Of a stretch of DNA of 64,000 nucleotides, positions 609 to 11,069 are shown piece by piece. The notes under the pieces are model-generated. The model made no database searches. It worked only from the letters and a program-made list of their open reading frames with translations, and was not told the origin of the DNA. Source of the stretch: Escherichia phage P896; sequence record OL451225.1, one strand, 5' to 3'. The translations under genes were made by a program, and so were the position numbers. Within the stretch, counting starts at the first letter, position 1, and each line of letters opens with the position of its first letter.

Positions 609-3600
609 ATGGCCGATATTTTAAAACCAGCATTCAGAGCAACATCCGGTCTCGATGCTGCTGGTGAGAAAGTCATTAATGTCGCGAAAGCTGATTACTC
701 AGTTTTATCAGACGGCGTTAACGTAGATTTCTTTATAGAAGAAAACACAGTTCAACAATATGATGCGACACGAGGATACAAAAAGAACTTTGCAGTTATT
801 AACGATAACCGTATTTGGGTTGCTCAACGTGATATCGCGGCTCCGGCAGGGACATTTACCCCTCAGTATTGGTTAGCAACCCGTACTGACCCGAAATGGG
901 AAACTGTTGCATCTCCAACTCGTCAGCTTAGCTCGGGTGAATTTATCGCGGTCGACTCAGCTGCAAGCTTTACCACATTTACATTGCCTCCGAACCCGAC
1001 TGATGGTGATACCATCGTTATTAAAGATATCGGTGGCAATACCGGTTATAATGAAATCAAAGTTCAATCGAGCAATGTACCTGGTCAAGGTAACCAAAAG
1101 ATTGTTCGTTTCGGTAACCAATTTACTGAAATATTAATCAGTAAGCCGTTCTCTTACAACATGCTTATTTTCTCCAACCGCTTATGGCAGTTCTGGGAAG
1201 CAGGTAACGAAGAACGCGGAATAAGAATTGAACCAAGCTCTGGCAAATATCGAACTCAAGCATCAGATTTTATTATGCGTCATTATACGACTGCAGAAAA
1301 AATTACATTTATTCTTCCTAAGTATGCTAACCAAGGTGATATTATTAAATCTGTTGATATAGATGGATTAGGCCCATTATATCACCTGGATGTTGAAACG
1401 TTTGACGAGTCAAGTTCTCTGGGTAAACAAGGCCAACACAGTATGGAATTCCGTACTACTGGTGATGGTTTCTTCGTTTATAATGCCACCGAAAAATTGT
1501 GGGTGACCTGGGACGGTGATAATAAAACTCGTTTGCGTGTAATTCGTGACAATGTGAAATTGTTACCAAACGAAAGTATCATCGTGTTCGGTAATGATAA
1601 CAACACTGCGCAGACAATTAACATCGACCTTCCGACGGGTGTTCGTCCAGGTGATGTTGTTAAGATTGCTCTGAACTATCTCCGTAAGGCACAGACTGTT
1701 AATATTAAAGCTTCGGGTACTGATAAAATTGCATCTTCTGTTCAGTTGCTTCAGTTCCCGAAACGTTCGGAATATCCGCCGGATACTGAATGGGTACTGG
1801 TTGACTCTTTGACTTTCAATGGTAACATAAGTTATACTCCGGTTATTGAATTAAGTTACATGGAAGATACAGATAAAGGAATTAACTATTGGGTTGTTGC
1901 TCAGAACGTTCCGACTGTTGAGCGTGTTGACTCGAAGGATGATTTGACCCGTGCTCGCCTGGGTGTTATTGCATTGGCTAACCAGGCTCAGGCTAACGTT
2001 GACCATGAAAATAACCCTGAAAAAGAATTAGCAATTACTCCGCAGACTTTAGCTAACCGTGTGGCTACTGAATCACGTCGTGGTATTGCACGAATTGCTA
2101 ACACTGCCCAGGTAAACCAGGATACGACTTTTGCTTTCCAGGATGATATTATTATCTCTCCGAAAAAGTTAAACGAACGTACAGCTACTGAAACAAGACG
2201 TGGGCTTGCAGAAATCGCCACACAGCAAGAAACTGATGCAGGCACAGATGATACTACCATCATCACTCCACGTAAGCTACAAGCTCGTCAGGGCTCAGAA
2301 AGCCTATCTGGTATCGTTAAGTATGTTCCTACTACCGGGACTACTCCAGCAGCAAGCCGTATAACTGTTGGGACCAACGTTTATAATAAAAATACAACTA
2401 CTCTGGTAATTTCTCCGAAAGCTTTGGACCAATATAAAGCTGACCAGAACAACCAAGGTGCTGTATATTTGGCCACACAGTCAGAAGTTAACGCGGGGGC
2501 AACAAATACAGGATTCAGTAACTCGGTCGTGACTCCGGAAACATTAGGTGCACGCAGAGCAACAGATTCAAACCATGGTTTAATCGAGATTGCAACTCAG
2601 GCTGAAACTAATGCCGGAACCGATTATACCAGAGCTGTGACTCCTAAAACGTTGAATGACCGTAAAGCATCAGAATCATTATCCGGCATAGCCGAGATTG
2701 CTACGCAATCAGAATTTGATACTGGCACGGATGATACTCGTATCGCAACGCCATTAAAAATTAAAACTAGACTTAATAATACTGCTCGTACTTCTGTTAT
2801 TGCAGCAAGTGGTTTAGTAGAAACAGGGACGCTCTGGGACCATTATACGCTGAATATTCTTGAAGCAAATGAGACTCAACGTGGCACTGCAAGACTGGCT
2901 ACTCAACTTGAAGTTAATACCGGTACTGACGATAAAACAATCGTTACTCCGCTTAAGTTGATGTCGAAAAAAGCCACAGAAAGTACAGAAGGTATTGTTC
3001 GCATCGCTACTCGTGCAGAAACTATCACAGGAACAAGTTCGATTCTTGCTGTTTCTCCGGTTAGTCTGAAATGGATTGCACAGTCCGAACCAACATGGGC
3101 AGCAACCACGACGACCCGCGGTTTTGCTAAGATGTCCGAAGGCGCAATTACTTTTGTCGGTAATGCAACTGCAGGTTCGACCCAGGCTCTTGACCTGTAC
3201 GAGAAAAATAGCTATGCTATCTCTCCGTACGAGTTAAACAAAACTCTTGGTAACTTCCTGCCGCGGCTGGCTAAAGCAGCAGACTCGGATAAACTGGATA
3301 ACCTGGATAGCACGCAGTTTATTCGTCGTGATGTAGCACAAGATATTAATGCTAATATGACATTCAAACAGCCTGTTAGAATTGAAAGTACTTTAACAGT
3401 TACCGGCGTAGTTAATTTGAGTGGTTCTGTTACTTCAAATAATACTACATTAACCGGTGCTACTGCAATCAATAGCAATTCTACTGTAGGTGCTTTGAAT
3501 TACATTGAGTTCACTTCAGAATCTCAAGGTGCGGGTACTTGGAACTCTCAACATGATAGTAATGTTAAAGCTCCTGTATTTTTAAATATAACTACTCCGT

Positions 3601-4484
3601 CTGGCTCATCTAAATACGTTCCTTTAATTAAGCAACGTTATAAAGATGGGACATTTACCTTTGGTACATTGATAAATGAACCTACCTCAAATGATGAAGG
3701 TGCTTTTGTTCTTCATTATATAGATGCAGTAAAAACCCAGCGTAAATGGACCTTTAGACGGAATGGTGATTTAGAAATAACTGCAGGTAATTTCGTTATT
3801 GGTAATGGGTCTGCTGTAATTAATGGTGGTCTTAATGTTACTAAAGCTTCTGGTATTACAACCACTGGGCTAGTTGCCAATAGTGAATCCAGATTCGAAG
3901 GTGCTGTTGCTATTAACAACTTCCTTACGGTAAGCAACAAAGCTACACTTAACAACGGCTTAGCTGTTCAGAAATATGCAAGGGTTACAGGCGATAAGAC
4001 TTCTGACATCTATAACAGAAAACCTACAATGGATACTGTCGGCTTCTGGTCCGTTGATATCGATGACCCTGCTACATATAATCAGTTCCCGGGCTATTTC
4101 AAAATGGTCGAAAAGACTAACGAAGTAACTGGTCTGCCTTATTTGGAGCGTGGTGAAGAAGTTAAATCACCTGGCACATTGACTCAGTTTGGCAACACGC
4201 TGAATTCACTCTATCAAGACTGGATTACTTATCCGAATACTGCTAATGCCAGCACCACTCGTTGGACTCGTACATGGCAGCAGAACAAAAACGCGTGGTC
4301 TGGTTTTGTTCAGGTCTTTGATGGAGGTAACCCACCTCAGCCGTCGGATATTGGTGCATTGCCTGCTGATAACGCTTCGATGAGTAACCTGACTATCAGG
4401 GATTGGTTAAGAATCGGTAACGTACGTATTGTTCCGGACCCAGTAACCAAATCCGTTAAATTCGAATGGATTGATACACCATAA
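609..4484 (+). CDS. 34: Long tail fiber proximal subunit gp34
   Basis: 1291 aa ORF (T4 gp34 about 1289 aa); first gene of a 34-35-36-37-38 block; repetitive fibrous sequence (RxxGIARIAxxAE-type repeats). Confidence 0.9.
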   Translation: MADILKPAFRATSGLDAAGEKVINVAKADYSVLSDGVNVDFFIEENTVQQYDATRGYKKNFAVINDNRIWVAQRDIAAPAGTFTPQYWLATRTDPKWETVASPTRQLSSGEFIAVDSAASFTTFTLPPNPTDGDTIVIKDIGGNTGYNEIKVQSSNVPGQGNQKIVRFGNQFTEILISKPFSYNMLIFSNRLWQFWEAGNEERGIRIEPSSGKYRTQASDFIMRHYTTAEKITFILPKYANQGDIIKSVDIDGLGPLYHLDVETFDESSSLGKQGQHSMEFRTTGDGFFVYNATEKLWVTWDGDNKTRLRVIRDNVKLLPNESIIVFGNDNNTAQTINIDLPTGVRPGDVVKIALNYLRKAQTVNIKASGTDKIASSVQLLQFPKRSEYPPDTEWVLVDSLTFNGNISYTPVIELSYMEDTDKGINYWVVAQNVPTVERVDSKDDLTRARLGVIALANQAQANVDHENNPEKELAITPQTLANRVATESRRGIARIANTAQVNQDTTFAFQDDIIISPKKLNERTATETRRGLAEIATQQETDAGTDDTTIITPRKLQARQGSESLSGIVKYVPTTGTTPAASRITVGTNVYNKNTTTLVISPKALDQYKADQNNQGAVYLATQSEVNAGATNTGFSNSVVTPETLGARRATDSNHGLIEIATQAETNAGTDYTRAVTPKTLNDRKASESLSGIAEIATQSEFDTGTDDTRIATPLKIKTRLNNTARTSVIAASGLVETGTLWDHYTLNILEANETQRGTARLATQLEVNTGTDDKTIVTPLKLMSKKATESTEGIVRIATRAETITGTSSILAVSPVSLKWIAQSEPTWAATTTTRGFAKMSEGAITFVGNATAGSTQALDLYEKNSYAISPYELNKTLGNFLPRLAKAADSDKLDNLDSTQFIRRDVAQDINANMTFKQPVRIESTLTVTGVVNLSGSVTSNNTTLTGATAINSNSTVGALNYIEFTSESQGAGTWNSQHDSNVKAPVFLNITTPSGSSKYVPLIKQRYKDGTFTFGTLINEPTSNDEGAFVLHYIDAVKTQRKWTFRRNGDLEITAGNFVIGNGSAVINGGLNVTKASGITTTGLVANSESRFEGAVAINNFLTVSNKATLNNGLAVQKYARVTGDKTSDIYNRKPTMDTVGFWSVDIDDPATYNQFPGYFKMVEKTNEVTGLPYLERGEEVKSPGTLTQFGNTLNSLYQDWITYPNTANASTTRWTRTWQQNKNAWSGFVQVFDGGNPPQPSDIGALPADNASMSNLTIRDWLRIGNVRIVPDPVTKSVKFEWIDTP

Positions 4485-4492
4485 GAGGTATT

Positions 4493-5629
4493 ATGGAAAG
4501 ATTTATGGCTGAATTTGGACAGGGATATGTCCAAGTTCCCGTGCTTTCTGAAAATAACGCAGTAAGATATAAATTGTCGATTGCTGGGACTTGTACCAAA
4601 TCGCCAAACTATCCCTACGTTAAGTTTCAAGATGAGGCCTTCGGGCCTCAGAACTTCCAGAATGGATTAAACCTTATTGAGATTGACCCTGTAACAAATA
4701 CAATCACTGCAACCAAAAGTTATGGCTTCACAAAAGACTACGATGTTATTTCGCAGGCTTTTGTGGCTTATATTAATTCCATCCCGGCGGGTAGGATTGT
4801 TTGTTTGATATCACAGGGGAAATTGAATGCTTCTCAAACTTTAATTGATTGGTTCAGAACACACGGCTCGACTGCATTCCCGGATAAGTGGCTGATTGAC
4901 CAAGTTGATACTTCATATTCGGCATTTTATATAACTGGTCGAAATGCAATCGTTAAAGAGCATGTGTTGTATAATGACGGGAAAACTGTTGAGGATGTAT
5001 TGACTCCATTGGAAATGGTGTATGACAACTTTGCTGATGTGGGCGGCACAGGGTTCCCTCTGCGCATCGTGGAAGACGAAAACACATATTACAGTAATAG
5101 TACACAAGAAATAAAACGTTTCCCCACAGACTCTCCTATCACTCCTGCGGCCGATTATAATATGGCCCCTGGTGATACTTTTTACCTGAAGTTTCAGCTG
5201 ACATATGACCAGGCACTTAAAGACCTTGGAACAACTCAGATGTCTGTTCGATTCTTTAATGGTCAGACGATGATTCAGTCAAACGATTATGATATCCCAT
5301 CTTCAGGACAAGCAAGCCCACCGGCTGGTGCATGGATGACGTTTGAACGTTATGTAGTTGTTCCACCGAATGCTGATGGATTTACACTGTACGCAAGGAA
5401 GACTGTTACTGCTGGACAAGGTGGAGTAAGGAATATTTTCTTTACAGAAATCGCGCGACAAGAAACACAAGCTAAATCCGCGGAAATCGGTGTCAACGGT
5501 ATAAGAATGGTTGTAGCTGGAGAACCAGGAAATCTTGGTAATGTCATTGCACAATTGAATGATAAAAATGCAACTAAAGCAAGTCAGTCTGGATTTGTAT
5601 TTGCCGCAGAATTCCGTGAAAAAGAATAA
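4493..5629 (+). CDS. 35: Long tail fiber hinge protein gp35
   Basis: 378 aa ORF immediately after 34 (T4 gp35 about 372 aa); SD aagagg upstream. Confidence 0.85.
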   Translation: MERFMAEFGQGYVQVPVLSENNAVRYKLSIAGTCTKSPNYPYVKFQDEAFGPQNFQNGLNLIEIDPVTNTITATKSYGFTKDYDVISQAFVAYINSIPAGRIVCLISQGKLNASQTLIDWFRTHGSTAFPDKWLIDQVDTSYSAFYITGRNAIVKEHVLYNDGKTVEDVLTPLEMVYDNFADVGGTGFPLRIVEDENTYYSNSTQEIKRFPTDSPITPAADYNMAPGDTFYLKFQLTYDQALKDLGTTQMSVRFFNGQTMIQSNDYDIPSSGQASPPAGAWMTFERYVVVPPNADGFTLYARKTVTAGQGGVRNIFFTEIARQETQAKSAEIGVNGIRMVVAGEPGNLGNVIAQLNDKNATKASQSGFVFAAEFREKE

Positions 5630-5685: not shown

Positions 5686-6333
5686 ATGGCCGATTTAAGA
5701 GTAGGCTCAACGACTGGAGGCTCAGTTATCTGGCACCAGGGTAACTTTCCGTTGACGCCAGTAAGCAATGATTTATTTTACAAAACATATAAAGTATATA
5801 CAGAATTCAATAAACCACAGGCAGCAGATAACGACTTTGTTTCAAAGGCTCTTGGTGGTAATTATAAAGCAAACGTATATTTCGAGCAAGGTCTGACCTT
5901 TAACGATACAAATGGTTATGGCATTAAACTCGGAGCAAGAACTGGTGGTGCACCATTTACGGCTTCATTCCGTATAAAAGGTCCGTTTGGTTTCGAAACC
6001 GAAACAGGCACGCCATTTATTATTTTTGACCCTGATACTACAACCGGAGCCAAAAGATTCACGGTTATGGGTGATACGCTGGCTCGTCAAGTTTATGATG
6101 ATTCGGGTCGTGTATTTTCCCCAGGGAATACTCCGTCAAAAGCACAAGTTGGATTAAGTGATGTGGATAACGCAAAACAGGTCCAAATAAATAATAGTAA
6201 CATACAATCTATGGCTGGCGTTCTTTCAGCCCCCAATTTTATATCTAGGAGCCCAGGTACATTGAACGAACACGTTCCTCGTATTGACCAGGTTGTTCTT
6301 AGAGGTACATCTGAAGATTTTGGATATTATTAA
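5686..6333 (+). CDS. 36: Long tail fiber distal-half connector gp36
   Basis: 215 aa ORF (T4 gp36 about 221 aa) between 35 and 37. Confidence 0.85.
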
Positions 6334-6341
6334 GAGGCATT

Positions 6342-9300
6342 ATGGCTACTTTAAAATCGATACAATTTAAAAGAAGTAAAACACCAGGAGCCAAGCCTAC
6401 TGCAGCTCAGTTAGATGAAGGCGAACTGGCTATTAACTTGCGTGACCGTACTATTTTTACCAAGTCAGACCAGGGACAGATTATTGATTTAGGCTTTGCT
6501 AAAGGTGGTACTATTGATGGTGATGTGACTATTAATGGTAAATTTACTTTAAATGGTGCGCATGTTCAGACATTAGGTGGTATTAATACTACTGGCGGAA
6601 TTTATTCCGGCGCGGATGTGAGTGCATTGATTTATCGTGCTCGAAATGGTTCGTTTTATTCTAGAGCGTCGAATGATACTTCTAATGCTCATTTGTGGTT
6701 TGAAAATACCAACGGTTCTGAACGCGGTGTTTTATATGCCAAACCCCAGCTTGAAAATGAAGGCGTAATTACCATGCGCGTTCGCCAGGGTACTGCTGCC
6801 GGTGCGCAAAATTCAGAGTTCCATTTTATTTCTAATGATGGTGGTATTTTCCAGGCACGCAAATTAACTGCTTTAACTTCTATTAGTACACCAACTATTA
6901 GTGTTAATTTAATTAATCATGATTCAAAAACATTTGGACAATACGACAGTCAATCTTTAGTTAACTACGTATATCCAGGCACCGGCGAAACAAATGGTGT
7001 AAACTATCTTCGTAAAGTTCGAGCTAAATCAGGCGGAACCATTTATCATGAAATTTGTACGGCTCAAACAGATCAGGCAGATGAGGTTTCTTGGTGGTCC
7101 GGTAATACACCATCATTTAAATTATATGGTATTCGTAATGACGGCCGAATGATCGTCCGCAATAGCGTAGCCATCGGGACCGTGACTGCAGGATACCCGT
7201 CAAGCGACTATGGTAATGGTGCCGCTTTAGGATTCGGTGTTTATTTAGCTCTAGGCGATAACGGGACGGGGCTGTCATACAAAAAAACCGGTGTATTTGA
7301 TTTAGTTGGTTCAGGGAATTCTGTCGCATCTATTACTCCAGATAGTTTCCGTAGTACTCGTAAAGGTATATTTGGTTGTTCAGAAGACCAAGGCACCACA
7401 TGGATTATGCCTGGCACTAATGCCGCTTTCTTGTCTGTTCAAACACAAGCTGATAATAACAATGCTGGAGACGGACAAACTCATATTGGATACAATGCTG
7501 GCGGTAAAATGAGTCATTATTTCCGCGGTAAAGGCAAAACTAATATTAATACTCAGGAAGGTGTAGACGTTAACCCTGGTATATTGAAGTTAACCACCGG
7601 CAGTGAAAGTATTAGCTTTAATGCCGCAACTGGAAGTATTAATTCTACATTAGCTTTTCGTCTTAATAAAGGCATAATTATTGACGGACCTGATAATCAG
7701 GGATTCCAGTTTAACGCCCCGACGGCCGCAGATGGTACTAGAAGTATATACTGGAATAGTGGTACTCTCGCAGGTCAAAACAAAAACCCTGTTACAGTTA
7801 AAGTGTGGGGTAATTCATTTAACGCATCTGGTGATCGTAATCGTGAAACCGTTTTTGAAGTAGCTGATGGGCAAGGTTATTATTTTTACGCTCAACGTAC
7901 TAATCCTGCATCAGGTCAAACGGTAGGTCCGGTCAACTTTAAATTTAACGGAACTGTCGAAACAGGTCATATCATAGGCCTTGGAAATATAAGTGCCTCC
8001 GGTACAGGTTCTTTCGGTGGCAATGTTACCATGTCTAATGGTTTGTTTGTCCAAGGTGGTTCTTCTATTACTGGACAAGTTAAAATCGGCGGAACAGCAG
8101 ATGCATTAAGAATTTGGAATGCTGAATATGGCGCTATTTTCCGTCGTTCAGAAAGTAACTTTTATATTCTTCCAACCAATCAAAATGAAGGCGAAAGTGG
8201 AGACATTCACAGCTCTTTGAGACCTGTGAGAATAGGATTAAACGATGGCATGGTTGGGTTAGGAAGAGATTCTTTTATAGTAGATCAAAATAACGCTTTA
8301 ACTACAATAAACAGTAACTCTCGCATTAATGCCAACTTTAAAATGCAATTGGGACAGTCGACATACATTTATGCAGAATGTACTGATGCTGTTCGTCCAG
8401 CAGGGTGTGGTTCCTTTGCATCACAGAATAATGAAAACGTCCGTGCTCCGATTTATATGAATATAGAGCGTACTGCTACTTCTGAATATATTCCTATTGT
8501 TAAACAGCGGTATGTTAAGGGTAACGGTTGCTATTCATTAGGGACTTTAATTAATAATGGTAACTTTAGAGTTCATTATCATGGTGGCGGAGATAATGGT
8601 TCAACAGGACCACAGACAGCTGATTTTGGATGGGAATTTATTAAAAACGGTGATTTTATTTCTCCTGGTAGAATTATTGCCGGTGCTGCTATTCTTGGCA
8701 CTGATGGTAATATCACCGGTGGCTCTGGTAACTTTGCTAACTTAAACAGTACAATTGAATCACTTAAAACTGATATTGTTTCAAGTTATCCTATTGGAGC
8801 CCCAATTCCATGGCCAACGGATACTCCTCCTAATGGTTATGCTTTGATGGAAGGTCAGACCTTTGATACTGCAGCTTATCCTAAGCTCGCTATCGCATAT
8901 CCTACAGGTACTATTCCGGATATGCGTGGACAAACTATCAAGGGTAAGCCAAGTGGGCGTGCTGTGTTGAGTGCAGAAGCTGATGGTATTAAGTCCCATA
9001 CCCATGGTGCATCTGCTTCGAGTACTGACTTGGGCACTAAAACCACATCAAGCTTTGATTATGGCACTAAAACATCTTCAAGCTTTGATTATGGTACTAA
9101 AACTACCAACACCACAGGTAACCATAACCATAGTGTTAGTGGTAATACCAACACCACAGGTAACCATAGCCATAGAGATGGACGTCGATTTAACCCCAGT
9201 ATTTTTAAAGATACTTATCAATATGGTTATACAAGCTCAGGTCAAAATAACTGGGGTGTACAAGGCTCAGTAGGTATGTCTATGGGGTGGTTAGCGAATA

Positions 9301-9530
9301 CCAGTACAGATGGTAATCATAGCCACTCGTTCTCGGCTACTACTAACACAACAGGTAACCACGCTCATACTGTTGGTATCGGTGCCCATACTCACACTGT
9401 AGGTATCGGCGCTCACACTCACACGGTAGCGATTGGTTCACATGGACACTCTGTTACCATTAACAGCACCGGTAATACAGAAAACACGGTTAAAAACATT
9501 GCTTTTAACTATATCGTTCGTTTAGCATAA
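6342..9530 (+). CDS. 37: Long tail fiber distal subunit gp37 (receptor-binding fiber, T4 type with His-box tip)
   Basis: 1062 aa ORF; C-terminal region has GNHSHS / [34 protein letters not shown] His-x-His repeats and ends [11 protein letters not shown], as I recall for T4 gp37; a phage tail collar-like motif ([23 protein letters not shown]) precedes it. Confidence 0.9.
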
Positions 9531-9557: not shown

Positions 9558-10103
9558 ATGAAAATTTATCATTTTTATTTTGACACAAAAGAATTTTACA
9601 AAGAAGAAAATTATAAACCAGTTAAAGGCCTTGGTCTCCCGGCCCATTCAACAGCTAAAAAGCCTTTAGAACCTAAAGAAGGATATGCAGTTGTATTTGA
9701 TGAACGCATTCAAGATTGGATTTATGAAGAAGACCATCGAGGCAAACGTGCATGGACTTTTAATAAAGAAGAAATCTTAATAAATGACATAGGAAGCCCA
9801 GTCGGTATAACTTTCGATAAACCTGGCGAGTTTGATATATGGACAGATGATGGCTGGAAAGAAGATGAAACATATAAACGAGTGATGATTCGCAATCGAA
9901 AAATTGACGATTTGTATAAAGAATTCCAGGTATTAAGTAATATGGTTGAAGCCTCAGTCGCCGATAAGAAAGAAAAATTCTATCACCAGAATCTTAAACG
10001 TTTCTTTGCTCTTTTAGAAAAACACGAACACCTCGGTGGTGAATTCCCGGCTTGGCCAGAAAAAGAGAAAAAATCATTCTTCAAAAGATGGTTTAAAAAA
10101 TAG
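9558..10103 (+). CDS. 38: gp38, T4-type tail fiber assembly chaperone (short form, not the T2-type adhesin)
   Basis: 181 aa ORF directly after 37 (T4 gp38 about 183 aa; the T2-type adhesin is about 260 aa). Confidence 0.85.
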   Translation: MKIYHFYFDTKEFYKEENYKPVKGLGLPAHSTAKKPLEPKEGYAVVFDERIQDWIYEEDHRGKRAWTFNKEEILINDIGSPVGITFDKPGEFDIWTDDGWKEDETYKRVMIRNRKIDDLYKEFQVLSNMVEASVADKKEKFYHQNLKRFFALLEKHEHLGGEFPAWPEKEKKSFFKRWFKK

Positions 10104-10143: not shown

Positions 10144-10797
10144 ATGGAACCAAAAGTAGGATTTTCATTATCAGACCTACTTTTTGGACTTCTTGATAGA
10201 ATTTTTAAAGATAATGCGACCGGGAAAGTTGTTTTTTCCCGGGTACTAGTTATTGTTCTATTATTTTTAATGGCGGTAATCTGGTATAAAGGTGATGCAA
10301 TTTTAGATGCGTACAGGGATGCTTCATATGCCTCGTACACAGAAATGATAAGGCAAGACCAGGATAACAGATTTAAAATTGCAGCTATCGAGCAAATCCA
10401 GATAGTTCACTCATCAAGCGGGGCTGACTTCACGGCGATATATTCTTTTAGACCAACTAACCTTAACTACTTTGTGGATATGGTAGGGTACGAGGGGATA
10501 TTACCTGAATCAGTTGATGAAAAAAATTTGGGTGGGTTTCCAATAGATAAGACTTCAGCAGAATATTTGGCGGGGGTTAATGGTAATTATTTTGAATCCA
10601 GTACGGAATCTGTATTCTTACCAACAAAGAAAAAAAGCAGCTTCGCATATATGTTTAGCTGCCCATTCTTTAATTTGGAAAACGTTTATGCAGGTACAGT
10701 CTCGCTGTACTGGTATAAGCAAAAACCTATCCTTGGTTTTGATAGGCTTTCTGCTATGTGTGGACAAGCAGGTCGTACGCTTGGGCGTACACGTTAG
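10144..10797 (+). CDS. t: Holin T (lysis timing / lysis inhibition)
   Basis: 217 aa (T4 T about 218 aa); N-terminal TM segment (VLVIVLLFLMAVIWY) followed by a large periplasmic domain; position after 38. Confidence 0.9.
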   Translation: MEPKVGFSLSDLLFGLLDRIFKDNATGKVVFSRVLVIVLLFLMAVIWYKGDAILDAYRDASYASYTEMIRQDQDNRFKIAAIEQIQIVHSSSGADFTAIYSFRPTNLNYFVDMVGYEGILPESVDEKNLGGFPIDKTSAEYLAGVNGNYFESSTESVFLPTKKKSSFAYMFSCPFFNLENVYAGTVSLYWYKQKPILGFDRLSAMCGQAGRTLGRTR

Positions 10798-11069
10798 AAT
10801 CCGGAGGTATACATCATAAGATAACGGTGTATATCTTCGAATCCTTCGTTAAATTGTTCAATGATTTGTTCAATTTCATCTTCAGATAAACTTTTAAACA
10901 ACTTGTTAAACGATACATTGTTTAACTCATTACCATTCTCATTCCTCAATCCCAACTCATTCAAAAACGCGATAAACACATCACGCTTCATCGTAATATC
11001 TTCCCGGTCGGTTTTAATCAAAATTGAAGTTACAGTAACAATTTCAGAAACGATTTCAAATTTAGTCAT
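10794..11069 (-). CDS. asiA: Anti-sigma70 factor AsiA
   Basis: 91 aa; motifs ...VTSILIK..REDI...FIAFLNE...EQFNEGFE...RYLMMYT match my recollection of T4 AsiA (90 aa); convergent with t, overlapping by 4 nt. Confidence 0.85.
   Translation of the reverse strand: MTKFEIVSEIVTVTSILIKTDREDITMKRDVFIAFLNELGLRNENGNELNNVSFNKLFKSLSEDEIEQIIEQFNEGFEDIHRYLMMYTSGF

Follow-up and report, generated by a model that had tools for sequence, protein, structure and literature searches.

The window analysed here is a stretch of 64,000 nucleotides (nt) from Escherichia phage P896 (sequence record OL451225.1), and the element under study is a set of in-frame repeats lying within the final 180 codons of its gene 37, whose product is the long tail fibre's distal subunit. 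Two short tandem arrays, one of 30-nt and one of 27-nt units, lie here on either side of a head domain, accompanied by histidine-rich (His) boxes; the protein contains eight histidine-x-histidine (HxH) motifs in total. We consider it likely that the repeats form the layers from which a metal-stapled stem, or "needle", is built in a fibre tip of the T4 gp37 type, that this stem changes length with its two arms matched, that receptor specificity lies in the head, and that heads are exchanged at the His boxes. The gene and the features of its tip are as follows, with position 1 the first letter of the window.

6342..9530, + strand: gene 37, distal subunit of the long tail fibre (1062 amino acids, aa), from the open reading frame list and its translation.
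8997..9005, + strand: HxH motif H1 (SHTHG, aa 886-888), placed at the foot of the ascending arm and adjoining the collar domain; aligns with T4 H883/H885.
9009..9122, + strand: His-free part of the ascending arm, an 8-residue A0 (ASASSTDL) and three 10-residue units, delimited by the tandem-repeat array and the alignment gap against structure 2XGF.
9033-9062, 9063-9092 and 9093-9122, + strand: ascending units A1, A2 and A3; A2 is the unit absent from T4.
9123-9131, + strand: HxH of His box H2 (TNTTGNHNH), the box lying within 9105..9175.
9165-9173, + strand: HxH of His box H3 (TNTTGNHSH), the box lying within 9105..9175; left junction of the head swap.
9174..9317, + strand: head (receptor-binding tip) domain of 48 residues, of the lambdoid prophage Stf type according to DNA windows and tblastn.
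9318..9326, + strand: HxH motif H4 (GNHSHS), the first descending-arm His box; the right swap junction lies just after it, at ~9326-9352.
9348..9455, + strand: descending HxH ladder, four 9-residue units with one HxH each, delimited by the tandem-repeat array and the 9-aa gap against 2XGF.
9348-9374, 9375-9401, 9402-9428 and 9429-9455, + strand: ladder units TTGNHAHTV, B1 (GIGAHTHTV), B2 (GIGAHTHTV) and AIGSHGHSV.
9462..9527, + strand: conserved C-terminal segment of 22 residues leading back to the collar domain, near-invariant in 38 aligned homologues.

Both arrays are recovered by Tandem Repeats Finder, the 30-nt array at 9033-9103 with 2.4 copies, 90% matches and a score of 114, and the 27-nt array at 9359-9429 with 2.6 copies, 81% matches and a score of 93. 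Units A1 and A2 are identical at 27 of 30 bases, while B1 and B2 are identical at 23 of 27 and encode the same peptide. The window has three positions with at least 27 matches in 30 at an offset of 30 and 15 positions with at least 22 matches in 27 at an offset of 27; no such position occurred in 50 shuffles of the window, and chance is therefore excluded for both arrays. An earlier reading of the letters alone, which we call the sequence-only reading, had described in-frame, near-perfect tandem units, each present twice, in the tip of gp37. All units are indeed in frame 1 of the reading frame, the peptide strings that it quoted are exactly right, and the description holds for the two arrays; it does not hold for the pair of His boxes at 9105-9133 and 9147-9175, which agree at 28 of 29 bases with a 42-nt (14-codon) period and are not strictly tandem. 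Overlapping reading frames at 8971-9273 (+) and 8781-9005 (-) were set aside, because the frame 1 protein is kept in hundreds of homologues. The Pfam family PF03335 (Phage_fiber), a 14-residue phage tail fibre repeat, touches gp37 in one stretch, aa 1012-1023 (corresponding to unit B1), at 16.9 bits, below the cut-off of 20; its precomputed annotation is present on many homologues. The GenBank records of phages teqskov, teqdroes and teqhad carry a "repeat_region" at this place, that of teqskov coinciding with the 27-nt array, and a full-text literature search for the repeat peptides returned no papers.

On the strength of its sequence we assign gp37 to the T4 gp37-type long-tail-fibre tips, which have the architecture of 2XGF. 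The assignment follows from the match to that structure, from the collar domain and from the gene order gp34-35-36-37-38-holin, the same grounds that bear out the T4-type identity proposed by the sequence-only reading. Compared with the Protein Data Bank by phmmer, the C-terminal 274 aa match 2xgf_A with E=5.3e-96 (query 53-326 on chain 2-242, full-length coverage); Pfam PF07484 (Collar) is found at aa 819-866, directly upstream of the stem, with 44.8 bits against a cut-off of 24; and in PHROG the protein matches phrog_295, "tail fiber protein" (E=7e-111). In the T4 tip (2XGF, Bartual et al. 2010, as given by Islam et al. 2019, PMC6957217), the stem consists of residues 882-931 and 960-1009, the tip subdomain of residues 932-959 and domain D10 of residues 1010-1026. 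Seven iron atoms are arranged along the needle, held by histidine triplets such as that of H929; inter-subunit contacts join G921 to F970 and H929 to G964; and substitution of H929 or H931 by alanine is lethal (Islam et al. 2019, PMC6957217). A description of the T4/lambda receptor-binding protein family by Magaziner & Salmond (2022, PMC9659904) contains nothing on repeats or HxH motifs.

The tips of T4 and of the window have in common the collar domain, the two-arm HxH stem, a small head and the conserved C-terminus. The only insertions or deletions in the stem are 10 additional residues in the ascending arm, before the second HxH, and nine in the descending arm (GIGAHTHTV), both in the window; between H1 and H2 there are 39 residues in the window and 29 in T4. 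Seven of the window's HxH motifs align with T4 883/885, 915/917, 929/931, 966/968, 980/982, 989/991 and 998/1000, and the eighth belongs to the additional 9-residue unit, which makes the count eight against seven in T4. The suggestion of the sequence-only reading that the His boxes are T4-like metal-coordinating motifs is in agreement with this alignment to the motifs that bind the seven irons. The head of T4, on the other hand, is unrelated to that of the window and is shorter, with 34 rather than 48 residues between H3 and H4.

Given these correspondences, we propose an arrangement modelled on the T4 needle. Each chain would run up the stem as the ascending arm, form the small head at the distal pole and come back down as the descending arm; three chains would together make a six-stranded fibre whose axis is stapled by metal ions, each ion being bound by one HxH per chain. 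The ascending arm would, in the lower stem, consist of His-free units of ~10 residues ending in TDL or FDY and the descending arm of 9-residue G-I-G-x-H-x-H-x-V units, one layer being an ascending unit placed opposite a descending HxH unit. The window protein would then have four lower-stem layers and eight predicted metal sites, and T4 three layers and seven sites. Since a layer would need both arms, copy number could change viably only by matched steps of ±30 nt and ±27 nt; matched change would in turn make the stem length quantised and largely independent of receptor specificity, which would be a property of the head that H3 and H4 enclose. Conserved DNA in the His boxes may serve, in addition, as patches of homology for head exchange.

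The register of the two arms can be approached through the published T4 contacts. With the T4 numbering checked against the contact residues G921, F970, H929 and G964, the two contacts imply an antiparallel register in which the positions of facing residues on the ascending and descending arms sum to about 1892 (a+d ~1892). The T4 descending motifs 998-1000, 989-991 and 980-982 would accordingly lie opposite ascending residues D893/L894, F902-Y904 and ~S911, and this register gives one ascending (T/F)D(L/Y) unit for each descending HxH unit.

If the layers are built in this way, the numbers of units in the two arms should agree, and across the family they almost always do. From a pool of 120 close homologues, 150 representatives of 50%-identity clusters, 80 IMG/VR loci (mostly E. 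coli prophage loci) and the first 13 T4-like loci from a phage collection we obtained 157 unique complete modules. For each of these we took as the gap the His-free residues between the first two HxH motifs and as the run the C-terminal HxH motifs spaced exactly nine residues apart, the spacing also found in the descending arm of the window. A gap of 29 goes with a descending run of three in 89 modules, a gap of 38-39 with a run of four in 60, and a gap of 49 with a run of five in four; another gap or run is found in the remaining four. The gap is therefore 10n-1 over three states, with three, four and five layers. Three of the four exceptions are artefacts of the measure, one having an extra ascending-arm HxH and two being without the upper ascending HxH motifs, and in all three the number of ascending units equals the number of descending HxH motifs. 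We found no mention of such a paired-arm rule in the searchable literature.

Phages PhiZZ6 and PhiZZ23 provide a case in which the change itself can be seen. Their DNA is near-identical from the A array into gp38, except for one 30-nt and one 27-nt insertion or deletion, so that PhiZZ6 has one unit more in each array. Repeat number does change, then, in both arrays, and without a necessary change of host, since both phages were isolated on Citrobacter rodentium DBS100 and carry the same head. A cluster of eight mismatches immediately upstream of the 30-nt indel points to a conversion tract of small extent; no mismatches flank the 27-nt indel.

An explanation of the pairing that dispenses with any structural requirement is phylogenetic inertia, according to which stems of three, four and five layers are inherited as blocks and mismatched arms are workable but rare. 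The modules are mutually related, a double crossover that exchanges only the head leaves both arms from one parent, and one mismatched module does exist, all of which fit inheritance by blocks. The two separate indels in the near-identical DNA of PhiZZ6 and PhiZZ23, however, amount to a new matched change; the same head is found on matched stems of three and four layers in several unrelated lineages (P0138/P0210, ZQ3/P0189 and the window with a prophage); and the relation gap = 10n-1 extends across three states. We therefore regard inertia as an improbable account of the whole pattern. At the other extreme stands a strict form of the pairing rule, in which each 10-residue His-free ascending unit needs one 9-residue descending HxH unit (gap = 10n-1 with n = 3, 4, 5), any change of length takes two compensating indels ~300 nt apart, mismatched arms do not fold, and stem length may be tuned to the depth of the receptor under the lipopolysaccharide and its O-antigen. 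This strict form we offer tentatively, judging it slightly more likely to fail than to hold.

Several points weigh against the layered, matched-arm stem. One of the 157 modules, L062 (IMGVR_UViG_3300030021_000020, a metagenome contig with the module within 3001-3600), is the sole true mismatch, with two FDY units and one GIGAHxHxV unit; relative to phage TuIa it shows a clean 27-nt gap, and either such an intermediate state is tolerated or the contig is misassembled. Given that the 157 modules are related to one another, stems passed on whole could account for part of the pairing, and any selection against mismatched arms is putative. The arm register is derived from just two published contacts and arithmetic, and the opposition of a 10-residue to a 9-residue unit implies a bulge or a drift between the arms. 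An AlphaFold2 monomer of aa 789-1062, computed with a 38-sequence alignment, was unusable (predicted local distance difference test 50.6, predicted template modelling score 0.21), a monomer model being unlikely to succeed for a protein that is an intertwined trimer. Finally, both the presence and the identity of metal in the window protein, and with them the predicted eighth site, rest on the analogy with T4.

The sequence-only reading had further supposed that changes in repeat number, by slippage or recombination, would alter the length of the tip and possibly its receptor specificity. The first part stands, in that stems of three, four and five layers occur; the second is not supported, because copy number fails to track specificity. 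We examined 25 T4-like phages, 13 from the best hits and 12 from a less biased "spread" sample obtained with a collar-only query, and write the unit numbers of the ascending and descending arrays as 1+1, 2+2 or 3+3. All 13 best-hit phages (TuIa, DCP80, C6, teqskov, 04086, Ge15, mar009P5, JK45, SSE1, VR7, ZQ3, O157 typing phage 3 and AV112) have a 2+2 stem. The spread sample adds nine more phages with four layers, and the 1+1 state is confined to T4, PhiZZ23 and the frameshifted N2. The stem of the window (gap 39, run of four, eight HxH) is accordingly that of TuIa, TuIb and most Tevenvirinae whose adhesin is of the gp37 type, 22 of the 25 sampled, and it is also that of lambda Stf; 2+2 is the commonest state in T4-like phages, from which T4 itself departs with a shorter stem. 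Among the T4-like phages in the 2+2 state there are at least six unrelated head types, and the hosts include E. coli K-12, O157, Shigella and Citrobacter. Invariance of repeat number across relatives with different host ranges, which the sequence-only reading had named as the outcome that would speak against it, is largely what this comparison gave. Conversely, 6 of 17 multi-member head clusters are found on stems of different lengths. Copy number thus varies independently of head type and of host, and the evidence speaks against a host-range switch.

In Escherichia phage N2 (ON645936), gene 37 is frameshifted within the head and annotated only as a misc_feature, with 1+1 arms; the frameshift is either a sequencing error or the mark of a pseudogene. 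The heads of ZQ3, P0189 and P0192 form one class that is without the upper His boxes H3 and H4; these tips have five or six HxH in total and a larger head starting "MEISGSFGYFRSD". Members of the family therefore differ in how many metal sites lie near the head.

The history of the window's own duplication can be read from its synonymous sites. A1 (ACC ACA TCA) and A2 (ACA TCT TCA) differ by synonymous changes that the window has in common with DCP80, 04086, Ge15, JK45 and O157 typing phage 3. The mean identity of copies within one genome (A: 0.86, B: 0.84) does not exceed that of orthologous copies from different genomes (A: 0.88/0.84, B: 0.84/0.83). The shared signature and the lack of excess identity within genomes indicate that the duplication is old and stable; on these grounds we rejected an origin of the window copies by concerted evolution or recent slippage, and the duplication is inherited. 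Copies that are 100% identical are found in VR7 (A1=A2) and in 04086 (B1=B2), which suggests occasional homogenisation. We also rejected a contingency or phase-variable locus: there are only two copies, at 85-90% identity, their number is constant in 22 of the 25 T4-like phages, the copy-specific codon signature is conserved, and the one recent change of copy number came with no change of host.

The notion that the arrays are nonetheless slippage-prone host-range switches, in which the gain or loss of a unit alters tip length and through it receptor specificity, draws on the same observations. Copy number does differ among relatives (1+1, 2+2 and 3+3), the absence of mismatches around the 27-nt indel of PhiZZ6 and PhiZZ23 is what slippage or unequal crossing-over predicts, and the identical copies of VR7 and 04086 point the same way. 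A switch, however, is hard to reconcile with a 2+2 stem kept in 22 of 25 phages despite many heads and hosts, with 1+1 and 2+2 stems occurring under the same head and on the same isolation host, or with a signature kept in six phages while copies within a genome are no closer than those between genomes. Changes in a single array amount to 1 in 157 modules, and two copies at 85-90% identity are a poor substrate for slippage. We hold this explanation to be unlikely, about as much so as inertia, and retain the stem of matched layers.

What does differ between the window and its closest relatives is the head. In sliding 30-nt windows the DNA is 97-100% identical to that of T4-like phages DCP80 and 04086 over 8705-9100; over ~9165-9330 it is 96-100% identical to the Stf gene of an E. 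coli lambdoid prophage (L001) and only ~40% identical to the T4-like phages; and from ~9350 it is again mostly 80-93% identical to DCP80/04086, reaching 100% over the last 60 nt. Within the head, individual windows score 26-30 of 30 against L001 as opposed to 8-16 of 30 against T4-like relatives, and the ~40% level over 9170-9320 applies to DCP80, 04086, C6, Ge15, JK45 and O157 typing phage 3 alike. The 55-aa head has 94.5% protein identity to the Stf of seven lambdoid phages, and a tblastn search of 50,697 phage records found it in only these seven lambdoid siphophages and in no other T4-like phage. Of 5426 complete E. coli genomes, 1142 have a prophage that carries it. All of 131 sampled proteins with the window head have a 1+1 stem and an H3 preceded by STNAAGN, not by NTNTTGN as in the window. 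These comparisons indicate that the head was taken from the Stf gene of a lambdoid E. coli prophage, while the stem, the collar and gp38 stayed T4-like.

The junctions of the swap lie in or beside His boxes, at H3 (9147-9173) on the left and at H4/H5 (9318-9360) on the right. At the left junction a 21-nt patch, 9147-9167, equals the upstream half of H2 (9105-9125) and matches neither parent type, and at the right junction the patch 9331-9352 is likewise unlike both parents, T4-like and prophage. The left patch may be the result of conversion between boxes within the gene, or it may derive from an unsampled donor; a donor with the exact H3 junction had no match in IMG/VR, and 1146 E. coli records match the head but not the junction.

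Such junctions recall a model, which reportedly goes back to Tetart et al. 1998 (to judge by the title), of recombination linkers. In its full form the DNA of the His boxes would serve mainly as a linker for head swaps, and the stem repeats would be by-products without any pairing requirement. Both junctions of the imported head are where the model would place them, the 6 of 17 head clusters on more than one stem length speak for modular assortment, and a prophage fibre with one and a half tip modules (P0121) is readily seen as a product of such exchange. The HxH motifs, however, are metal ligands essential for folding, as the lethality of alanine at H929 or H931 in T4 attests (Islam et al. 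2019, PMC6957217), and FDY units that have no His box co-vary with the HxH units, which a pure linker role does not predict. As a replacement for the layered stem we consider the linker model very unlikely, the least probable of the explanations weighed here; as a statement about where heads recombine it complements that stem.

In P0121, an E. coli prophage fibre of 938 aa, a first collar, ascending arm and head start run into unrelated fibre sequence, which is followed by a second, complete module. The arrangement resembles what an insertion that replaced the tip would leave behind.

The collar/stem/head module of lambdoid Stf proteins (lambda orf-314; PhiR42_1, mEp460_ev081 and Kati) is homologous to that of the window, and lambda's own Stf has the same 2+2 stem with eight HxH, but a different type of head. 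Window aa 1 to ~940 and the chaperone are, unlike those of Stf, T4-like; because both the upstream DNA and the chaperone are T4-like, the window protein cannot be counted as an Stf; its head alone is of the Stf type. The window gp38 is 99% identical to that of DCP80, 94% to that of T4 and 28% to lambda Tfa, and the presence of a lambdoid head without its own Tfa implies that a T4-type chaperone can fold it. Hybrids of T4 in which a segment of lambda stf takes the place of the gp37 tip have reportedly been obtained, as the title of Montag et al. 1989 has it. The window would be their natural counterpart, a T4 fibre with a lambdoid tip segment, with the difference that here the exchange occurred in nature and is limited to the head between two His boxes. 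Duplications in gp37 are likewise said to expand the host range of T4 (Tetart et al. 1996, by its title). Tandem duplications in the C-terminal part of gp37 are an established type of mutation; the units of the window, however, are stem layers common to many phages and not newly selected.

We stress that the feature is a known structure, in the form that is commonest in a well-known protein family, and that nothing found in the window overturns current understanding. Beyond the sequence-only reading, the analysis adds that the two arrays would have to change together and that the head between them appears to be an import from a lambdoid prophage; what is new, to a modest degree but with practical use, is the paired-arm rule and the T4/lambdoid head chimera that arose in nature. 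The gp37/Stf tip is a main scaffold for engineering of phage host range, and the corresponding design rule for chimeric fibres would be to keep ascending and descending units matched and to swap heads at H3 and H4. Strict pairing, if true, would be a practical rule for the design of chimeric receptor-binding proteins in general. The import itself, in which a virulent T4-like phage appears to have acquired the head of a temperate lambdoid prophage that roughly one in five complete E. coli genomes contain, and to use it without the chaperone that belongs to it, bears on how quickly lytic phages can retarget themselves through the prophages of their hosts.

The genes around gene 37 are arranged as in T4 (gp34-35-36-37-38-t), and the window at 20-32 kb has ~96% identity with the T4-like Escherichia phages PSD2001, CJ20 and 212. 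They are as follows.

609-4484: long-tail-fibre proximal subunit (PHROG match).
4493-5629: proximal connector (PHROG match).
5686-6333: hinge connector (PHROG match).
9558..10103, + strand: gene 38, T4-type tail-fibre assembly chaperone, 181 aa (phrog_105, "tail fiber assembly", E=3e-43).
10144-10797: holin (PHROG match).

No tRNA genes were found by ARAGORN across the 64-kb window. Directly 3' of the holin gene, at 10889-10911, lies a further short tandem repeat of 12 nt in ~2 copies, with a Tandem Repeats Finder score of 37.

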